Virus record (IMG/VR): IMGVR_UViG_3300046057_000051
Direction: 5' to 3' (one strand)
Length of the DNA: 64,000 nt
From: a virus
Position numbers and translations under genes: made by a program. The notes beneath the pieces were generated by a model. That model searched no databases and had not been told where the DNA came from. It saw only the letters and a program-made list of their open reading frames with translations. Positions 12,060 to 28,214 of the stretch are shown piece by piece. Numbering within the stretch: the first letter of the stretch is position 1; every line of letters begins with the position of its first letter.

Positions 12060-12400
12060 ACCCATCTCCCCGGGATTACTTAAAGACCCGGGGGACGTGT
12101 CACTATCGCAATTAATCTCCGGCCGATACCGGCCGGACCATCACCACCCCGGACTGGACGGTCCACACCCGCCGACCAATACCCACGAACGGCACCACCC
12201 CACCCTCGGCTACGTGTTTCGAGCGGCGATTACCCCGGGGTAATGGGGAATCGCTGACTGGAGGTCCACCTATCCACGACACCACGCCCGACGGTAAACG
12301 CGGCGCCGCCCACATCCCCCCGGGGGCCCTGCAACACCCGGGTAAATCCGGGGATTAATACGGATATTATTCTATGCGATACGGGTATATTCGGTATCGG
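12060..12400. repeat. Palindrome-rich intergenic region between divergent replication and partition-like genes
   Basis: Perfect 16-bp palindrome ATTACCCCGGGGTAAT at 12229-12244; recurrent CCCGGG-ATTA/TAA words at about 12069, 12336 and 12347; imperfect CGATAC...GTATCG inverted repeat. Confidence 0.55.
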
Positions 12401-16621: not shown

Positions 16622-17731
16622 ATGGCTGACGAGACGCCGTACAAGAGCGAAGGCGAAACGGTAGATGTCATCGACGACCGCGCCGACGAACAGGATGAGA
16701 CCGGCAAGGAGTACGACGAAAAGTACCACGACCCCGAGTGGCTTTACAACCAGTACCACGGGTTGGGAAAGTCAACGCCTGAAATGGCCGAGGAGTGCGG
16801 AGTAGTAGATTCTACAATTCGCACATGGATGGACAGGCATGGTATCGACCGCCGTTCGCACTCAGAAGCGAACATATCTGGCGGTCCGTACACGGACGAG
16901 GAGTGGCTCCGGGAGCAGTATCACGGGCGGAAACGGTCGGCGGCAGAAATAGCTGAGGGGTGTGGGGTGAATCAATATGCAATCTACAGGTGGATGGACA
17001 GGCACGGTATCGACACTCGCTCCCGCGCGGAGGCGAACATGACTGACGGTCGATACACGGACGAGGAGTGGCTTCGAGAACAGTACCACGGGCACGGCAA
17101 AACAACATATGAAATAGCCGACGAGTGTGGAGTCCATGTAACTACAATCTCGAAATGGATGGACAAGCACGGAATAGCCTCTCGCTCAATCTCGGAGGCG
17201 AAGAAACGCCAGTCCGATAAGGTCGTGTATGTTTCCGATGTGGAGAGCCCGCCAACTGAGTCCGCCCCGGAGCGAAAAACCGTAGAGGTGGGAGGGAGGC
17301 GGTATGAAGGTCCTGTCGCCGGTTTAGACCTGACTGAATCAGACATCCGAGACCGAAACGTTGAGGTCTTGGAAAGCCCGTGGCGTGACGAGGAGTGGCT
17401 CCGGGAGCAGTATCACGGGCGGAAACAATCGGCGACCGAGATAGCAGAGGAGTGCGGGGTGGCAAAAACCACAATCTACGATTGGATGAAGAACAACGGC
17501 ATTGAACGACGGTCGTACTCGGAGGTACGTATGGGAAACGGCCCGTACACGGACGAGGAGTGGCTTCGGGAACAGTACCACGAGCAAGAGAGGTCTGCGT
17601 ATAATATTGCCGACAGGTGCGGAGCGAATGTGGACACAATCTACAGGTGGATGGACAAACACGGAATTGACCGCCGCTCAAACCAAAAGGCACAAAATGT
17701 CCGGTTCGGGGGCGACAAGGACGGCTCGTGA
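16622..17731 (+). CDS. Protein with five tandem HTH repeats
   Basis: 5 copies of Y.DEEWLREQYH....S..EIAEECGV...TI..WM..HGI..RS; lower GC than its neighbours. Confidence 0.85.
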   Translation: MADETPYKSEGETVDVIDDRADEQDETGKEYDEKYHDPEWLYNQYHGLGKSTPEMAEECGVVDSTIRTWMDRHGIDRRSHSEANISGGPYTDEEWLREQYHGRKRSAAEIAEGCGVNQYAIYRWMDRHGIDTRSRAEANMTDGRYTDEEWLREQYHGHGKTTYEIADECGVHVTTISKWMDKHGIASRSISEAKKRQSDKVVYVSDVESPPTESAPERKTVEVGGRRYEGPVAGLDLTESDIRDRNVEVLESPWRDEEWLREQYHGRKQSATEIAEECGVAKTTIYDWMKNNGIERRSYSEVRMGNGPYTDEEWLREQYHEQERSAYNIADRCGANVDTIYRWMDKHGIDRRSNQKAQNVRFGGDKDGS

Positions 17732-19471: not shown

Positions 19472-21049
19472 ATGGTTAGTCTCGATGAGGAGACACGGGA
19501 GGTCCTCAATACCGAGTTCGCCCGGCGGCTGGAGAACCAGGGGGCGTCCCCGCTCGACGTGCTTGTCGAGACGGAGTTCGGCGAGGCAGAGGCCGTCGCG
19601 CAACGGCTACAGAACGTGCCCGGCGTCGAGTTGGCGACGCAGGGCGTCGTCGCCAGCGAGTTCGTCGCCACGACGATGCCCGGCGAAGCTCTGCCAACGG
19701 TCGCCCGGCTCAACGGCGTCACGCAGATACATCAGGACCAACTCGTCGGCGTGAAACAGTCGGGCGCGTCGCTTCCGCAGCTACCGTTCATGCGTCCATC
19801 GACCGACCCGGTTGCCTCGGCGCTCTCGACGGCGGTGTTCAATCTCGGCGGTGTCGAGGACAAGTACGTCGGCGAAGTCGGCGTTTCCCGCGTCGAGATT
19901 CCGCAGGTCACGCCGGCGCAACTCCCGCCTGGAGACCCGATGAAGGCGGCGGCGTCCGCGCTCGATAACGCCTTCAACCTTGGGCTCACCGGCGAGGAGT
20001 ACGTCCCGACCGGGAAATCGTATCAGTGGGTGCGTAATAGCGACATGCTGGACGCCCACGACGGGTCGAGCGCCAAAGTCGGCGTCATCGACACGGGCCA
20101 CACCGTCGTGCCGCCGGCGAACGACGAGCGGCAGCCGCGGCTGGAGAGCTACGTGCCCGGGGAAGGCCCGACGGATTTCATGGGGCACGGCACGTGGTGT
20201 ACGTACACGGCCGTCGGGATGCCGGCAGCCGGCCCGTGGGGGACCGTTCGCGGTGTCGCCGGCGGCTCGCCTTACGGCCACTTCAAGGCGCTGAACACGT
20301 TCCCCGGGTTCGGGAAAACGTCGTGGATACTCGCCGCGATGGAAGCCGCACTCGACTGGGGTGCGGACGTGATTTCCATGTCGCTGGGCGGCGACCAGCA
20401 GGGCCCGCTGGACGAGGACCCATACGCGAAGTTCATCCGCCGCCGCTGTAAGGAGAACGCCGGGGAGGACGCCGGCGCTATCTTCGTCGTCGCGGCCGGT
20501 AACGCCGGCCCCGACAAGTGGACCATCGGCTCACCGGGTGTCGCCGAGAAGGCGCTCACTGTCGGTGCGTGGTCGCTGAAGGATGGGTCGCCGTCGTACT
20601 ATTCGTCGCGCGGCCCGCAGGGCGACTGGTACGAGAAGAACCGTGGTGAGTTCGAGGACGACGCGAACAGGTACAACACGTCGGAGTTCATCAAGCCGGA
20701 CGTGGCCGCGCCGGGAGGGGGCCGGAAAACGAAGGCCGACAGCGACGACGAGGGCGAACTCTTACACCAGATGTCTACGGGGTGGGCTGAGGGGTTGTAC
20801 GACGGTCTGAAGGATGCTCGTGGGAACATGAAGGGGACGAGTATGGCGACGCCTCACGTCGCGGGGCTCGTCGCGCGCCTGTTCGACGCCGGTATCATCA
20901 AGAGCGCGAAGGAACTCAAGCGCGTGACCGAGCGGAACAGCGAGCCCGGCTACCACCCCACGGCTGCTCCGGGCGCAAACGAGGAGGCCAAGGGCAAGAA
21001 TATTACTGTCGGGCATGGGCCAATCAGGGAGAGCGTGTTCAGTCCGTAG
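19472..21049 (+). CDS. S8 subtilisin-family serine protease
   Basis: VGVIDTG (Asp), GHGTWC (His), VAAGNAG (oxyanion Asn), GTSMATPHVAG (Ser); N-terminal propeptide-like region; no obvious signal peptide. Confidence 0.95.
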   Translation: MVSLDEETREVLNTEFARRLENQGASPLDVLVETEFGEAEAVAQRLQNVPGVELATQGVVASEFVATTMPGEALPTVARLNGVTQIHQDQLVGVKQSGASLPQLPFMRPSTDPVASALSTAVFNLGGVEDKYVGEVGVSRVEIPQVTPAQLPPGDPMKAAASALDNAFNLGLTGEEYVPTGKSYQWVRNSDMLDAHDGSSAKVGVIDTGHTVVPPANDERQPRLESYVPGEGPTDFMGHGTWCTYTAVGMPAAGPWGTVRGVAGGSPYGHFKALNTFPGFGKTSWILAAMEAALDWGADVISMSLGGDQQGPLDEDPYAKFIRRRCKENAGEDAGAIFVVAAGNAGPDKWTIGSPGVAEKALTVGAWSLKDGSPSYYSSRGPQGDWYEKNRGEFEDDANRYNTSEFIKPDVAAPGGGRKTKADSDDEGELLHQMSTGWAEGLYDGLKDARGNMKGTSMATPHVAGLVARLFDAGIIKSAKELKRVTERNSEPGYHPTAAPGANEEAKGKNITVGHGPIRESVFSP

Positions 21050-22837: not shown

Positions 22838-23012
22838 CGTACCAAAACCCGACTTCGGTCAACTCGGCGACTTCGGTGACGACCTCGGCGTGCTGGAGGA
22901 GTTGGAGCCGGAGGTAGTCGATGGCCCGCTCGGTCTCCCGCTCGTCAAGCCGAAAGGCGCCCCGGAGCCGCCGGACGTGATGGACGGCGGCAACCCTCTC
23001 GACCGCTCCTAA
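22830..23012 (+). CDS. 60-aa Pro-rich protein
   Basis: MPDVPKPDFGQLG..., overlaps the protease stop codon. Confidence 0.55.
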   Translation: MPDVPKPDFGQLGDFGDDLGVLEELEPEVVDGPLGLPLVKPKGAPEPPDVMDGGNPLDRS

Positions 23013-23103
23013 CCGGGACCGCTTCGACCGGATACGCCGTTTGTCTTGCTCCTCGACCAACCTAAAGTGCCTTTAGCGTCGAGCCCGAACCCCCGGGTAT
23101 AGT

Positions 23104-23571
23104 ATGGCAACGGGAGACGAGCGTGACGGCGGCGGCGGTAGTGGCGGGCCGCTACCGATGCCGCCTGGGTTGACGACTGCATCGTTCGGGCCGTTCGGCG
23201 TGCCGGTCCCGGTTCCCGAGATGGACGCCGCCGACGCCGGGGACGGCGCGTCCGACGGTGGCGGCGCGCCGGACCCGGCGGGGGACGTGCCGGAGAACGG
23301 GGACTCGGAGGGGGTGGAGCGGCTCCGTGAGACGGCCGAGGTGGGTGAGGCGTACATCGACCGCGTCGAGGAGGCGATGGGCGACGAGGCGTGTGCGTTC
23401 TGTAAAGGCATCCTCCAGCAGCTACGGGGCCGGCCGATGGACGAGCAAGTACAGGGGGTGCGGGAGTTGGCGACGCTCAAGGAGGAGATGCAGTCGGACC
23501 CCGATGAGGACCGTATCCGGGAGGTACTGGACGGGTTCGAGGCAATCGACGTGGAGAGCCAGTTCGTCTGA
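23104..23571 (+). CDS. Hypothetical protein with CxxC
   Basis: 155 aa; Pro/Gly-rich N-terminus, CAFC, helical C-terminus. Confidence 0.7.
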   Translation: MATGDERDGGGGSGGPLPMPPGLTTASFGPFGVPVPVPEMDAADAGDGASDGGGAPDPAGDVPENGDSEGVERLRETAEVGEAYIDRVEEAMGDEACAFCKGILQQLRGRPMDEQVQGVRELATLKEEMQSDPDEDRIREVLDGFEAIDVESQFV

Positions 23572-23580
23572 CGCGCGGGG

Positions 23581-24480
23581 CTACTGGTTGGCCCAGTCGG
23601 GGACCTCGATGCCGACCATCCGCGCGTACCTGTTCGTCATGCTTGGATGCTGGTGTCTGGAGCGGCGGTACACTTGGCCGAACACGTCACCGTCGGGGTC
23701 CATGTCCTCGAACTCGTGAGGGTTCTCCAGTCGGTGGAGGATGGGTGTGTGGCGGCCGAACGAGTGAACGCCGGCCTCGTGGTGGTTCCGACGGAAGTGC
23801 GTAGACCACGATTCGGGCTTCCAACCGTTCCCGTAGGTGTTGGTGAACACGACATCATTGGGGTCGCGCTCCCGGATGAGGCGGTCCAGGTGGCTCATCG
23901 CCCTGCTCCCGACCGAGAGGCGAGCCGGGTGGCCGCCCTTGACGGTTCGGACGTAGAGGGTGTCCGCCCCACGGTCGATGTCCTCCCGTCTGATAGCCGT
24001 CAGTTCGGCCGCACGGAGGATGCAGTCGTAGGTGATGGCGAGGGCGGCGGCACAGCACGGGCAGTCGCACGCGGCCGGTGCGTTCTCGATGGCGCGGTCT
24101 ACGTCGTCCGTCGAGAGGTAGTTCGGCGCGAAGGGGTCCGGCTCGCCGGAGACCATGTTCTGTACCTCCTCGGGGACTTCGCGGTCGTAGTTGAGACGGT
24201 ACCAGAGCTTGACGGCCGACAGCGCAACTCGGCGGGAGCGGTACGCATAGCTGTCGGGCGGCTGTCGGCCGCGGCCGTTGACCCACGGGTAGTCGGGGAG
24301 GTCGCTGTCGGCGAGCATCTGGTCGAAGTCGTAGAGCCAGCCGGTTTCGGGGTCGCCGCCGGGCCGCCACATCTCGAAGCGACGAATCCAGAGTTGGTAC
24401 ATGTCATACGTCTTGTCGCCGATGCGCGTCCCGACGACCCGGTTCTCGAACGTGTCGAGCGCGTCGTCAACTGCTGACAT
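23581..24480 (-). CDS. Tyrosine recombinase (XerA/integrase family)
   Basis: ILRAAEL (Arg), VKGG (Lys), HSFGRH (His/Arg), RHQHPSMTNRY (His/Tyr); 299 aa. Confidence 0.9.
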   Translation of the reverse strand: MSAVDDALDTFENRVVGTRIGDKTYDMYQLWIRRFEMWRPGGDPETGWLYDFDQMLADSDLPDYPWVNGRGRQPPDSYAYRSRRVALSAVKLWYRLNYDREVPEEVQNMVSGEPDPFAPNYLSTDDVDRAIENAPAACDCPCCAAALAITYDCILRAAELTAIRREDIDRGADTLYVRTVKGGHPARLSVGSRAMSHLDRLIRERDPNDVVFTNTYGNGWKPESWSTHFRRNHHEAGVHSFGRHTPILHRLENPHEFEDMDPDGDVFGQVYRRSRHQHPSMTNRYARMVGIEVPDWANQ

Positions 24481-24515
24481 AGTTTTAGTTCAATGCTGCG
24501 GCGGTATAAGATTCA

Positions 24516-24887
24516 TCACCCGCTGTCGGCCGGGACGGTCGATGCGTCGTGGAGGACGACGATGGGGTTGCCCTCGGCGGTCCAGGACGTGACCGACTCG
24601 ACGTACTCGTAGTTCCCCAACCCTTTCACGCCGTCGCGCGAGACGGCCTGTGCGTCGTCGTCGTTCAACTCCTGGAACGGTAACACCACGATGACGGCCG
24701 CCGGGGCTTCGGTGTGAAACATGGAAATCACCGAGCCGCGGTCGGATGGACTGGCGGTGAAGTCGCAGGCGTCGGCCAGCCCTTGCTCGATGTTGGCTCG
24801 CTCCTCGTGGCTGAGTTCCCGTCCTCCGAGGACGGTGAACCCGACGATGTGGTAGGCAGCGAGCCTGAAATCGTCCTTCATCATCAC
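24516..24887 (-). CDS. Hypothetical protein
   Basis: 123 aa ORF upstream of and co-oriented with the recombinase. Confidence 0.7.
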   Translation of the reverse strand: MMMKDDFRLAAYHIVGFTVLGGRELSHEERANIEQGLADACDFTASPSDRGSVISMFHTEAPAAVIVVLPFQELNDDDAQAVSRDGVKGLGNYEYVESVTSWTAEGNPIVVLHDASTVPADSG

Positions 24888-24932
24888 AACGCAATCAATC
24901 GTCTCGGCGTCACCACCCCCTGGCGGACTGGG

Positions 24933-25640
24933 TCACTCCGATTTTGGTGTGCTGTGCGTGAAGCTCGGTGAGTCGTCGCTGTCGGTGTGGCCGCCGTCGA
25001 ACAGGATGCAGGCTTTGATGTGTTCGGCCGGTGGGGCGGTGTTCATCGAGACGCTGGCGGGGTCTGCCTCCCGGGCCTTCGCCTGAAGGTTGAGGCGTCT
25101 CTCGACCGCTCTGATGCTGTCGTCGGTCGCACATGCGACGGCGCCGATTTCTTCGGTGCCGAAGGCGTGGCGCGTCTGGGCTTCGGCGTCGTCCCCGTGG
25201 CGCTGCATCTTCGCTACGTCGCCTTCGAGGATGGCGTCGCCCACCATGTCTTTCGACGTGTCGAGGCTTTCTGCGGCCCCCTCGTCGTCGAGCGTGGTTG
25301 ATTCGCCGACCTCGATGAGTTCGTCGTACAGGGTGAGGTAGGTGTCGGCGATGTCGCTCCGGTGGGTGTCGCTGGCGTCGGCGATGGCCTGGGCGTGTGT
25401 CTGGACTGCCCGGGACGCCAGTTGCATCGCGCGCGCGCACTCTCGCCGTCTACGGTCGCCGTCGAACAGTTCTCTCGCGTGGTCGAGGACATCCTGGGTC
25501 TCCGGCGATGGCATGCTCCCGGATAGATTTTCGAGGCGCTTAGAACTTCGCCCGTTCGGTAGCCCCATCTCCCGGCGTCGTACATGGCCGCTGGAGGCGT
25601 ATTCCGGTGGTTCGCCGCCCTCGGCGACCGGCGGTAGCAT
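24933..25640 (-). CDS. Hypothetical helical protein (true start uncertain, possibly 25568 or further downstream)
   Basis: Acidic helical core of a 235 aa ORF. Confidence 0.6.
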   Translation of the reverse strand: MLPPVAEGGEPPEYASSGHVRRREMGLPNGRSSKRLENLSGSMPSPETQDVLDHARELFDGDRRRRECARAMQLASRAVQTHAQAIADASDTHRSDIADTYLTLYDELIEVGESTTLDDEGAAESLDTSKDMVGDAILEGDVAKMQRHGDDAEAQTRHAFGTEEIGAVACATDDSIRAVERRLNLQAKAREADPASVSMNTAPPAEHIKACILFDGGHTDSDDSPSFTHSTPKSE

Positions 25641-25946
25641 ATAAACCCCGTTCCGGCCGTGTACGCTACGGCGGAAGTATACGCCCTTCTACCAGGACGC
25701 CGACACACCGGGCCTGATTTAGCACCACCCTACGGGAGTGGCGTATAGCTGATGAGTCGTCCGTCCAATTGAGAGCTATCGGTTTCCTGACCGGAGTCCG
25801 GTTCAGCGCCGGTTCGGGACCAGTCGGCTCGGGGCGAGTTATCGCCGGAAAACCTCCGGAAAACCGCCGGAAAGCGGCGCGGCCGGCCACGCGCGGAGTA
25901 TATCTCATACGCTCCGGCCGGCGCCGGCGCCGACCCCCGGCCGCCG

Positions 25947-25974
25947 GAGACCTATAATCATAGTTATAGGTCAC
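25947..25974. other. dif-like tyrosine-recombinase core site (11-6-11)
   Basis: GAGACCTATAA-TCATAG-TTATAGGTCAC: arms match at 10 of 11 positions as inverted repeats, with ATAA-N6-TTAT centre, in AT-poor non-coding DNA 1.5 kb from the recombinase. Confidence 0.75.
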
Positions 25975-27090
25975 AAAGCGCCCGAAATTCGGCCGTTGAG
26001 GGGTCTCAGACACCGAAATTCTCTTAACGAAACCTTTATGACTCTCCCGCCCCAACGTGGGGCTATCCCCCCTGTTGTGGGGCGGGTTCCCGGCGCTGGG
26101 GTATCCAGGCACGGGCCACCCGGCGTGGCGCCGGCCTGCGGTTGGCCGGTGGCGTCGGGCGGCGGCGCCCGTACAAGCGCCCCCCTCCGCGAGCGCGGGA
26201 ACGGGGCGTGTGAGGCCCCACGGCTCCGACCTTACCGCCTACCCCCGGTCGCACCGGGGAGACTTAGATGTAAACTCGGAAATAGCGTCCGGCGCGAGGG
26301 CTCCCCCTCGCGCGCCACGGCATTGGCCGAACGCGCCCGGCGGGATTACGCCCGTTTACGAGACGCTCCGGCCCGTAGCACACGCGACGGTGGTCGCGGA
26401 TAGGTGTGAGGGCGACGGGGCCGCGCGGCGCGAAGTCGTGCGGCCAATGTGTCCGTCGCCGGACGGGTCCAATCGGCCCCCCTTCTCGGGGGCTGCCAAT
26501 GCCCCAAACGGCGGGCGGGCGAGTCCCCCGGCGGGGTCCGGGCAACCCAAACCCCGCGTAATTGATAACCGGGAGACTCCCCGGGGAACGGCCCCGTGAC
26601 CCGAAGCGCCCGGGTGCGAGAATACGGCGCTCCGCCGGATACGGCGGCACGGCCCCACGCCCCGATTAAGGGTGAGACCCCTGAGCGTACATGGCGGTGG
26701 GGGCCAATGGTATCCCCGCGAGTCCGACAAACTCCGCCCCGCGACCGGCGCGGGGCGCGGAGGGGCGCGGGAGTACCCCGGACCCGGCGCTGGCGCCGGT
26801 CAGTTCGCCAGCACGGCCTACCAGCCGACGAGTGGTTTTCGGCGTCCCCGGAAGGGGCTATTAGGGCACGCGACCCCGGCATAGCGCCGGGGCGCGAGGA
26901 ATTTCACGGCTATGGCACCGCACCCGACGCGAGCGCGCGAATGACGGTCGCGCCCCGGTCGGCATAGCCCGACCCGGCAGGGGCGGCGGCGACAAGCTGC
27001 CGTCCCCACCGGCCATAGAAGGCATCAGCCATTACCAGATAGACGTACCCGAGAGTAAACAGCACCGTGGATACATCGGCCCGCTGCACG

Positions 27091-27100
27091 GGGATATAAG
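27091..27100 (+). promoter_or_regulatory. Putative TATA box driving the gene array
   Basis: GGGATATAAG about 25 nt upstream of the first hairpin at 27124; archaeal TATA-to-TSS spacing. Confidence 0.5.
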
Positions 27101-27221
27101 AGCCACCATCAGCCACGCGCACCGGCCCGAGAGGGCCGCCGTGGGCAACCAGCGAACACACCCACATTCGCATCGCGGCTTTCGACCACCCACCGGCCCC
27201 GAGAGGGGTGTGGCCCCGGCT

Positions 27222-27614
27222 ATGAACGCCGACAGTCTACCCGTCCCGAGCTTCGGGACTGCGACCGACGACGGAACCGTACAAGAGCGGTCCGGCTACC
27301 ACCAGCCCGGTAACAACGGCCCCGCGACCAAGAGCTGTACGTGTGCCCGCACGACCGAGAAGGGCGCCTACCGTGACGTGCGGGTCGAGTACGACGGCGC
27401 GACCGTCCACTTCTACCACCAGTCGCCGGTGGTCGTCGTGGAGGGCCGCACGCGCCGGCTTGACAGTCACGGCTACCGGACCCGGACCACAAAAGACCGC
27501 ATTAACCGCTACCTTCCCGACGGGTACGAGGTGTACCAGGAGGAGTACGAGTGGTACCTGGAGACGCCGAGCGGCGAGCGGGAGTTCACGGACGGCATGA
27601 CCGTCACGGTCTAA
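27222..27614 (+). CDS. Array ORF 1, hypothetical
   Basis: ATG follows the hairpin motif; FYHQSPVV...GYRTRTTKDRINRY. Confidence 0.8.
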   Translation: MNADSLPVPSFGTATDDGTVQERSGYHQPGNNGPATKSCTCARTTEKGAYRDVRVEYDGATVHFYHQSPVVVVEGRTRRLDSHGYRTRTTKDRINRYLPDGYEVYQEEYEWYLETPSGEREFTDGMTVTV

Positions 27615-27664
27615 CCGTCCCCGCAACCCCCCATATCGGCCCCGAGAGGGGCGTGACTCCAGCG

Positions 27665-27838
27665 ATGAGCGCCAACGACTACGAGGACAGCCTCGCATGC
27701 AAACGGTGTAACGAACCCCGACCACCCGGCCCCGAGCTATGCCCGAGGTGCGAGGACCTACAGGCGGCGCGGACGGCCCCCGGAAACCCGGAGCCGGTCA
27801 TGCACCACAACCCGCCGCACGGCAACACGACCCGGTAG
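27665..27838 (+). CDS. Array ORF 2, Zn-finger micro-protein
   Basis: CKRC...CPRC; ATG 8 nt after GTGA. Confidence 0.75.
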   Translation: MSANDYEDSLACKRCNEPRPPGPELCPRCEDLQAARTAPGNPEPVMHHNPPHGNTTR

Positions 27839-27887
27839 CCGGTCGCCGGCTACCACTCCCGGCCCCGAGAGGGGCGTGACTCCGGCT

Positions 27888-28214
27888 ATGAACGCCAACC
27901 CCACCATCGAACTGGCGGAACCGATAGGGCAACTCGCCGGCGACGACGTGGCCGAGGTCCGCGAGAAGTTCGCGGACGTGGCGGCCGCAATGGCCGAGCG
28001 CCACCCGCCGACGAACCGCAGATTGCTCATCGCCACCGCCGATTACTGGAGCGACGCGGCCGGTCCGAACGACCCAATCGTCCAATCCATCCTGTCCTGG
28101 GTGGTGTACCTCTCGCACGACGACATGAGTCAGTTCGACGCCGGCATGACCGTAGACCAACATCAGGCGTTGCGGAAGCGCCTCGGCGAACTCGGTCTCC
28201 GCGACGACGACTGA
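27888..28214 (+). CDS. Array ORF 3, hypothetical
   Basis: ATG 8 nt after GTGA; acidic helical. Confidence 0.8.
   Translation: MNANPTIELAEPIGQLAGDDVAEVREKFADVAAAMAERHPPTNRRLLIATADYWSDAAGPNDPIVQSILSWVVYLSHDDMSQFDAGMTVDQHQALRKRLGELGLRDDD

Follow-up and report, generated by a model that had tools for sequence, protein, structure and literature searches.

A conserved palindrome beside a Xer-like tyrosine recombinase gene in an uncultured halite element is a candidate lox/dif-like site

Is a short palindrome upstream of a tyrosine recombinase gene a site on which that enzyme acts, or does it serve transcription, replication or integration? This question was raised by positions 25947–25974 of IMG/VR virus record IMGVR_UViG_3300046057_000051, a stretch of 64,000 nucleotides (hereafter, the window) that originated from a halite metagenome. 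The first-pass annotation had described a dif-like 28-mer consisting of two 11-bp arms, GAGACCTATAA and TTATAGGTCAC, separated by TCATAG, and had proposed that it was part of a self-contained dimer-resolution system, an attP for integration at the host dif, or the attI equivalent of the neighboring gene array. The sequence, the complementarity of 10 of the 11 arm positions and the 6-bp spacer were all reproduced at 25947–25974. Within the 28-mer, the perfect dyad had a 9-6-9 arrangement (25949–25972), in which the left arm GACCTATAA (25949–25957) and the right arm TTATAGGTC (25964–25972) enclosed an asymmetric 6-bp center (25958–25963) reading TCATAG on the plus strand of the window and CTATGA on the strand of the recombinase gene. 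The 28-mer was present as a single copy in the window even when three mismatches were allowed, and no additional copies of the half-site GACCTATAA were prominent there. Two perfect 9-6-9 palindromes were observed in the window against 0.6–0.9 expected, as were five 11-6-11 sites with at most one mismatch against approximately two expected, and the geometry of the 28-mer by itself is not beyond chance. An AT-rich 9-6-9 palindrome, with A/T pairs at six or more of the nine arm positions, was expected only 0.0024 times per window, and in DNA with a GC content of 66% such a dyad is a rare feature.

The gene layout of the window was called by GC3. The recombinase gene (23581–24480) belongs to a minus-strand operon with two genes of no assigned function, located at 24516–24887 and 24933–25640 between the recombinase gene and the palindrome and encoding proteins of 123 and up to 235 amino acids, respectively. 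Neither protein gave a match above noise in Pfam, PHROG or NCBIfam or a usable match in the Atlas. The ESM Atlas copy of the product of 24933–25640 starts at residue 43, and the true start of this reading frame may be at 25514, which would lengthen the non-coding gap. On the plus strand, a row of short genes starts at 27141, each preceded by the hairpin tag GCCCCGAGAGGGGCGTGA. The window also carries a ParA-type gene, which was found in the related element L020 as well, and genes for an S8 protease and a polyprenyl synthase. No capsid or terminase protein was recognized among 30 larger reading frames compared with Pfam, ten of which were also compared with PHROGs, and Rfam and tRNA scans of the window gave no matches. 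The S8 protease consists of 525 amino acids in the window (19472–21049), 547 in L020, and approximately 965 in the relatives L016 (9722–12619) and L018 (8970–11873). The L016 protease contains an intein with a LAGLIDADG domain and that of L018 gave a weaker intein-splicing match; the copies of the window and L020 gave no intein match. A multi-HTH gene at 16622–17731 contains a 165-nt tandem repeat (16812–17202; 2.4 copies, 72% matches), and the encoded protein therefore appears to be built from repeated HTH modules. A centromere role for the palindrome was considered and rejected, as another region rich in palindromes, at 12.06–12.40 kb, is found immediately upstream of the par-like operon. 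This gap (12060–12400) contains a perfect 16-bp palindrome, ATTACCCCGGGGTAAT (12229–12244), together with several CCCGGG and ATTA words, and is a candidate centromere.

The palindrome is located in a non-coding control region of 1.5 kb (25641–27140) with a GC content of 72–84%, in which the approximately 100 bp around the site (GC 0.44–0.48) form the only AT-rich stretch. On the recombinase side of the site, three CCGGAAA(AC) words are arranged 11 bp apart at 25845–25873 and are kept in part in L016. They are followed by an AT-rich box on the minus strand (25898–25910), which possibly serves the leftward recombinase operon as its TATA box; every relative likewise has an AT-rich patch 25–50 nt from the site. 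The array side begins with ACAAAG (25973–25978, plus strand), a flank found on this side only, and in all eight elements compared below. Since its complement, CTTTGT or CTTTGG, marks the array side of all eight sites, the orientation of the site is fixed. Beyond this flank, two copies of CCGAAATTC (25982–25990 and 26013–26021, plus strand) form direct repeats beside the site; at this place, each relative has a different word of its own, of approximately 8–9 nt and also in two copies. The sequence CGAAACCTTTATG (26028–26040, plus strand), which faces the leader and the gene array, resembles the haloarchaeal BRE/TATA consensus and is thus a predicted promoter; five further elements conserve it as CGAAAnnCTTAwTA, 54–75 nt from their sites, and L016 and L020 lack it. 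A small conserved palindrome, CCCCAACGTGGGG (26050–26062, plus strand), follows the TATA-like box after approximately 10–20 nt, close to where the transcript is predicted to start. Judged by these motifs, divergent promoter-like elements lie to either side of the site, which does not reach into the BRE/TATA of the array promoter or its predicted transcript start. The word GCCAATG/CATTGGC occurs four times in the GC-rich leader of the 1.5-kb region (26321–26709) and once in the other 62.5 kb, an enrichment of approximately 110-fold, and could represent a repeated motif, bound by protein or acting as RNA, within the leader that the promoter beside the site would drive.

Contigs of related elements were collected through homologues of the recombinase, which yielded seven distinct elements besides the window, with recombinases 55–93% identical. 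The seven elements share the gene order of protease, small genes, recombinase, non-coding gap and tagged array, and in each of them the gap contains a single AT-rich 9-6-9 dyad, in the same position and orientation as in the window. In the eight elements, the site lies 0.28–1.5 kb upstream of the recombinase gene in constant orientation. Read on the strand of the recombinase gene, the sites are GACCTATAA-CTATGA-TTATAGGTC in the window, GAACTATAA-CTATGA-TTATAGCTC in L016, GAGATACAA-CTATGA-TTGTATCTC in L018, GAGTTACAA-CTATGA-TTGTAACTC in L020, GGGATACAA-CTATGA-TTGTATCTC in L057, GAGATACAA-CTATGG-TTGTATCTC in L056, GTGATATAA-CTGCGA-TTATATCTC in L052, and GAGTTAAAA-TTATAG-TTTTAGCAC in L021. The mean pairwise identity of the sites was 0.77, and the surrounding 250 nt aligned at 0.3–0.7, near noise. 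We judged the palindrome to be real and selected because of this conservation in relatives, not because of its geometry, and the comparison of sequences showed it to be under selection across the element family.

The centers and the arms differed in their pattern of conservation. The center CTATGA is common to five of the eight elements, the others having CTATGG, CTGCGA and TTATAG; none of the eight centers is palindromic, and all point the same way with respect to the flanks and the recombinase gene. As a random 6-mer is non-palindromic approximately 98% of the time, it is the conserved orientation and sequence of the center that carry the weight. Arm positions 1, 5, 6, 8 and 9 are invariant in the eight elements, and the innermost AA/TT is nearly so. 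Positions 3, 4 and 7 vary, with two, three and three pair types, and the two arms still complement each other there in 7/8, 7/8 and 8/8 elements, respectively; the inter-arm mismatches in relatives are A·C, G·T, T·T, A·A and T·G. The 11-bp arms of the initial description therefore hold as a 10/11 match in the window, but the dyad conserved in the family has 9 bp per arm, with the outer 2 bp asymmetric in relatives. Similarly, the ATAA-N6-TTAT center expected of a dif site was found in three elements (TAA-N6-TTA in the window, L016 and L052), but four have ACAA-N6-TTGT (CAA-N6-TTG in L018, L020, L056 and L057) and one has AAAA-N6-TTTT (AAA-N6-TTT in L021). Arm types track the relatedness of the recombinases, and TACAA-type arms are common to enzymes that are only 59–69% identical; the arm GAGATACAA is common to three elements with recombinases 63–67% identical, being exact in L018 and L056 and having one outer mismatch in L057. 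The recombinase gene is the only gene conserved beside the site on its side; the intervening small genes vary between relatives and are absent from L020, L056 and L057. No comparable palindrome was found in the available DNA of the more distant recombinase relatives L022, L023, L055, L067 and L068, which are 40–59% identical and have other gene contexts. Pairwise comparison of the 250-nt flanks did not reveal any pair in which similarity was confined to one flank, as it would be at a mosaic breakpoint. Contig ends within approximately 110 nt of the site (L053, L057, L058 and one contig of run X2) were considered and set aside; L052 and L053 have the same sequence across the site, a CA microsatellite being their sole difference, which indicates ordinary strain variation. 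This CA-rich microsatellite abuts the right arm of the site (L052, 2667–2700; L053, 133–160), and its length differs between the otherwise identical contigs.

The candidate enzyme for the palindrome, the 299-amino-acid product of 23581–24480, matched PF00589 and integrase families of PHROG. Its closest sequence relative of known structure was archaeal XerA (5hxy; E = 1.6e-4 over 135 residues); Cre followed weakly (E = 0.2–1), and the protein was no nearer to Cre than to other tyrosine recombinases. We found 33 metagenomic homologues, and in an alignment of 20 sequences R156, K181, H239, R243, H276 and Y285 were invariant. The AlphaFold model (pLDDT 86) aligned across both domains with XerA, which was the best match, and with the integron integrase IntI, the core and catalytic domains of lambda Int, and Cre; the model has no arm-binding domain. 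These comparisons identify a two-domain tyrosine recombinase with a complete set of catalytic residues, which is predicted to be active. Two-domain tyrosine recombinases without an arm-binding domain work on simple inverted-repeat sites. The protein scored 38.1 bits against the XerA model of NCBIfam (NF040815), the cut-off of which is 220 bits; it is therefore Xer-like but not a XerA orthologue. Accordingly, what had been called the element's own Xer-type recombinase is indeed linked to the site, Xer-like and intact in its catalytic residues, but falls outside XerA itself. The family also has invariant C138, C143, H228, H233, H239, H244 and H249, listed as outside the catalytic set (protein positions 138–249); these cysteine and histidine residues hint at a metal site, which would be unusual for tyrosine recombinases.

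The cumulative GC skew of the window has its maximum at 26–27 kb, and we separated coding effects from strand effects by means of third-codon-position (GC3) skew. Plus-strand genes had a mean coding-strand GC3 skew of -0.02 to the left of the gap and -0.25 to the right (p = 8e-4), and minus-strand genes had values of -0.27 and 0.00, respectively (p = 3.5e-4). The orientation-corrected skew flips its sign in the non-coding region, its cumulative curve peaking exactly between 25640 and 27141, and the same asymmetry was present in three of four relatives. The orientation-independent GC3 skew is approximately +0.12 to the left of the gap and -0.12 to the right, and reaches -0.3 to -0.5 at 46–57 kb. 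This strand asymmetry is unusually strong for a haloarchaeal replicon, and a second switch lies outside the window. By the bacterial skew rule, the polarity of the flip corresponds to a terminus. The predicted origins of Haloquadratum walsbyi, in contrast, are near cumulative GC-skew maxima (PMC3119063), and a comparison with pHV3, a weak and noisy check of polarity, placed the maximum beside its orc1/cdc6 gene. The site thus lies at a flip in strand composition, as dif sites do, and given the ambiguous polarity the flip may mark either an origin or a terminus.

We searched representative genomes of 185,579 species for the window arms with any spacer and for the center with family-type arms (the family consensus), and neither was found in a haloarchaeal genome; all genome matches to the window arms or the family consensus were from AT-rich bacteria. 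A scan with GACCTATAA-N6-TTATAGGTC gave 13 genome matches and two viral-contig matches, in which no title names an archaeon and both viral contexts are AT-rich. A scan with GANNTANAACTATGATTNTANNTC gave nine genome matches, one viral match and 18 matches in a metagenome collection that does not cover the JGI relatives, all with GC of 0.28–0.51. The looser pattern TAYAACTATGATTRTA gave at least 120 matches, with no haloarchaeon among the matches listed. Searches with the recombinase or its alignment gave only unconfirmed pattern matches in the representative genomes and viral contigs, and no confirmed relative. There was no match for the recombinase by tblastn against phage and plasmid records, nor for 23000–28000 by megablast against the same kinds of record. 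Contigs of four halite metagenome runs crossed 25947–25974 with no joint or loose end, although contigs drop rare forms. The dif-like sequence named for pHV3 (PMC11840125) reads GGGTAAT-GATAGC-ATTACTGG and resembles the site only in TAAT.ATAG. Because of the ParA-type gene of the window and L020 and the absence of recombinase relatives from the genome, plasmid and phage records, the element appears to be an extrachromosomal, actively partitioned replicon, a lifestyle that fits best with these data.

The explanation that we favor takes the palindrome as the core site on which the Xer-like recombinase of this element acts, the two constituting a lox/dif-like multimer-resolution module of a ParA-carrying extrachromosomal element. 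We place the probability of this reading at roughly 0.5, and among the three explanations offered initially, self-contained dimer resolution was likewise the one favored, on the basis of core-site geometry, linkage to an intact recombinase and selection across the family. Inverted arms around a 6-bp non-palindromic center have the geometry of a simple tyrosine-recombinase site; the arms co-vary symmetrically, as would be the case for a dimer-bound site whose specificity co-diverges with that of the protein; and the asymmetric center is fixed in orientation and nearly invariant. The recombinase alone is conserved beside the site, it is catalytically complete by sequence and structural model, and it has no arm-binding domain, which also argues for this reading. 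Further points in its favor are the ParA-type gene together with the lack of recombinase relatives in genome, plasmid and phage records, the position at the skew switch, and the precedent of modules in which a site adjoins its recombinase gene (PMC5357621, PMC11840125). In the proposed mechanism, one recombinase monomer would bind each 9-bp arm, and strands would be cut and exchanged at both edges of the asymmetric 6-bp center. If the element is circular, two directly repeated sites in a dimer would recombine to give monomers, and restoration of monomers is suggested by the asymmetry of the center and the single copy of the site; Cre/loxP has this role for P1, as have single-recombinase Xer/dif modules for chromosomes. 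Since the site is located between two divergent promoter-like elements, the bound recombinase may also regulate its own operon. Several points stand against the core-site reading. The contigs of the four halite runs contain no direct trace of recombination at the site, and the recombinase relatives at 40–59% identity have no comparable palindrome in their available DNA. The comparison comprises only eight independent sequences, and co-variation of arms and recombinase would also be expected from shared ancestry with any linked gene. A location between divergent promoters is also typical of operators, and the origins that skew maxima mark in Haloquadratum (PMC3119063) may argue against a dif-like terminus.

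An operator or upstream regulatory site, at which a dimeric transcription factor other than the recombinase would control one or both divergent promoters as a lysis/maintenance switch, is an unlikely explanation, though one to be taken seriously, and the finding would then be ordinary. The site is flanked by the array promoter at 54–75 nt and by the recombinase-side AT-rich box at 25–50 nt, the element-specific direct repeats beside it resemble further protein-binding sites, and symmetric co-variation suits any homodimer. However, archaeal repressors usually act at the BRE/TATA or the transcript start, and the site overlaps neither in the array promoter. No gene for a DNA-binding protein is conserved next to the site, the neighboring small genes being variable or absent and, in the window, free of recognizable domains. 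Moreover, a symmetric operator has no need of a near-invariant, orientation-fixed asymmetric center, and the arm centers of the site are 15 bp apart, a wider spacing than the approximately 10–11 bp usually spanned by HTH dimers. We regard a part in the replication origin as improbable; in this role, the dyad would bind an initiator within the large non-coding region, or nucleate an unwinding element or a hairpin there. The site is in the only AT-rich island of the GC-rich 1.5-kb gap, with short direct repeats on its flanks, and lies at the maximum of the orientation-corrected cumulative skew, for which Haloquadratum walsbyi (PMC3119063) and the noisy pHV3 maximum by orc1/cdc6 are precedents; a covarying stem with a conserved loop would also suit a DNA hairpin, with predicted energies of -1.5 to -8.2 kcal/mol. 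Nevertheless, genes for Orc1/Cdc6, RepH or a rolling-circle Rep were not found adjacent to it, 24 bp is much too short for an unwinding element, and the arms are unlike the neighboring repeats, contrary to what an initiator dyad would require. The AT-rich stretch beside the site reads as a well-conserved BRE/TATA promoter, and the mismatches in relatives cannot be read as wobble pairs of one consistent strand, as those of a hairpin should be.

Integration of the element by its recombinase into a matching site of the host chromosome, possibly the host dif, would require the same architecture as the core-site reading, and the window site has TAA-N6-TTA, the most conserved feature of archaeal dif (PMC11840125); some bacterial mobile elements are known to use dif as their integration site (PMC5357621). 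We nevertheless consider an attP very improbable: among the approximately 185,000 representative genomes, the arms of the 28-mer occurred in no haloarchaeal genome, and no genome encodes a recombinase relative, so that no integrated copy flanked by the site is known. This absence is weak evidence. At all eight site-bearing loci, in the seven relatives and the window, the site is bordered left and right by the same element genes; arm sequences are not constant across the relatives, as a shared host target would demand; and the pHV3 dif-like sequence is unlike the site beyond the short match noted above. The idea that the site is an attI equivalent, the insertion point for hairpin-tagged gene cassettes of an integron-like system, draws on the tyrosine recombinase gene diverging from a long one-way array of short genes with the same hairpin tag before each. 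Yet the array promoter, which is conserved, lies downstream of the site and, together with a 1.1-kb leader, separates it from the first cassette; the distance from site to promoter is nearly fixed in relatives (54–75 nt), and the site has no sequence in common with the tag. We rejected this idea, which is hardly credible, because nothing was ever inserted between site and promoter and the first tag is 1.2 kb away.

To our knowledge, multimer resolution has not been characterized for any archaeal plasmid or virus. We tentatively propose, as a possibility still well short of probable, that the core-site reading identifies a self-contained Cre/lox-like (Xer/dif-like) module, the first from an archaeal extrachromosomal element, with a recombinase family unknown in cultured organisms and a site at a replication landmark, and that the TATAA, TACAA and TAAAA arm variants represent mutually orthogonal, salt-adapted pairs that also set the direction of the two main transcription units. 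A compact recombinase/site pair working at saturating salt, with natural arm variants, would help explain the stable inheritance of large uncultured halite elements and could yield a genetic tool for haloarchaea. The position of the site at the skew switch is a concrete anchor for locating the origin or terminus of the element.

Among known systems, resolution sites in divergent control regions include Tn3 res, TnpI/IRS of Tn4430 and ResD/rfsF of F. Like these, the locus has a core dyad and short repeats upstream of the recombinase gene, between divergent promoter-like elements, and could be autoregulatory; unlike these, its neighboring repeats are only candidate accessory sites, and the proteins are unrelated or distant. 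The resemblance to Cre/loxP of the phage-plasmid P1, and to Dre/rox, VCre/VloxP and Vika/vox, extends to one recombinase without an arm-binding domain and a single-copy inverted-repeat site with an asymmetric center, near the recombinase gene of an extrachromosomal replicon. The arms differ between related pairs and yet stay symmetric, the presumed role is multimer resolution, and the recombinase model matches the Cre fold over its full length. The element differs from Cre/loxP in its arms of 9 bp and center of 6 bp, compared with 13 and 8 bp, and in its archaeal, halophilic host. Single-recombinase Xer/dif modules are represented by archaeal XerA/dif, XerS/difSL and XerH/difH (PMC2958812, PMC5357621, PMC11840125). 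In XerS/difSL, XerH/difH and some archaeal xerA/dif pairs, the site adjoins the recombinase gene as one module (PMC5357621), and in Haloferax and Halobacterium putative dif sites lie upstream of the xerA operon (PMC11840125), haloarchaeal chromosomal dif being still only putative (PMC11840125). In common with these modules, the element has XerA as the best match of its recombinase in sequence and fold, a 6-bp center, TAA-N6-TTA in the window site, and a site that adjoins the recombinase gene at a strand-skew switch. The module falls outside XerA/dif proper, its recombinase being far under the XerA family cut-off (38 vs 220 bits). Further differences are a mobile-element carrier in place of a chromosome, symmetric arms of 9 bp where dif has 11 bp, loss of the TAA/TTA motif in five of the eight elements, and a skew polarity that may mark an origin and not a terminus. 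The module would be an archaeal, mobile-element addition to the known recombinase/site systems, with the Cre/loxP-type pairs and the single-recombinase Xer/dif modules as its closest counterparts.
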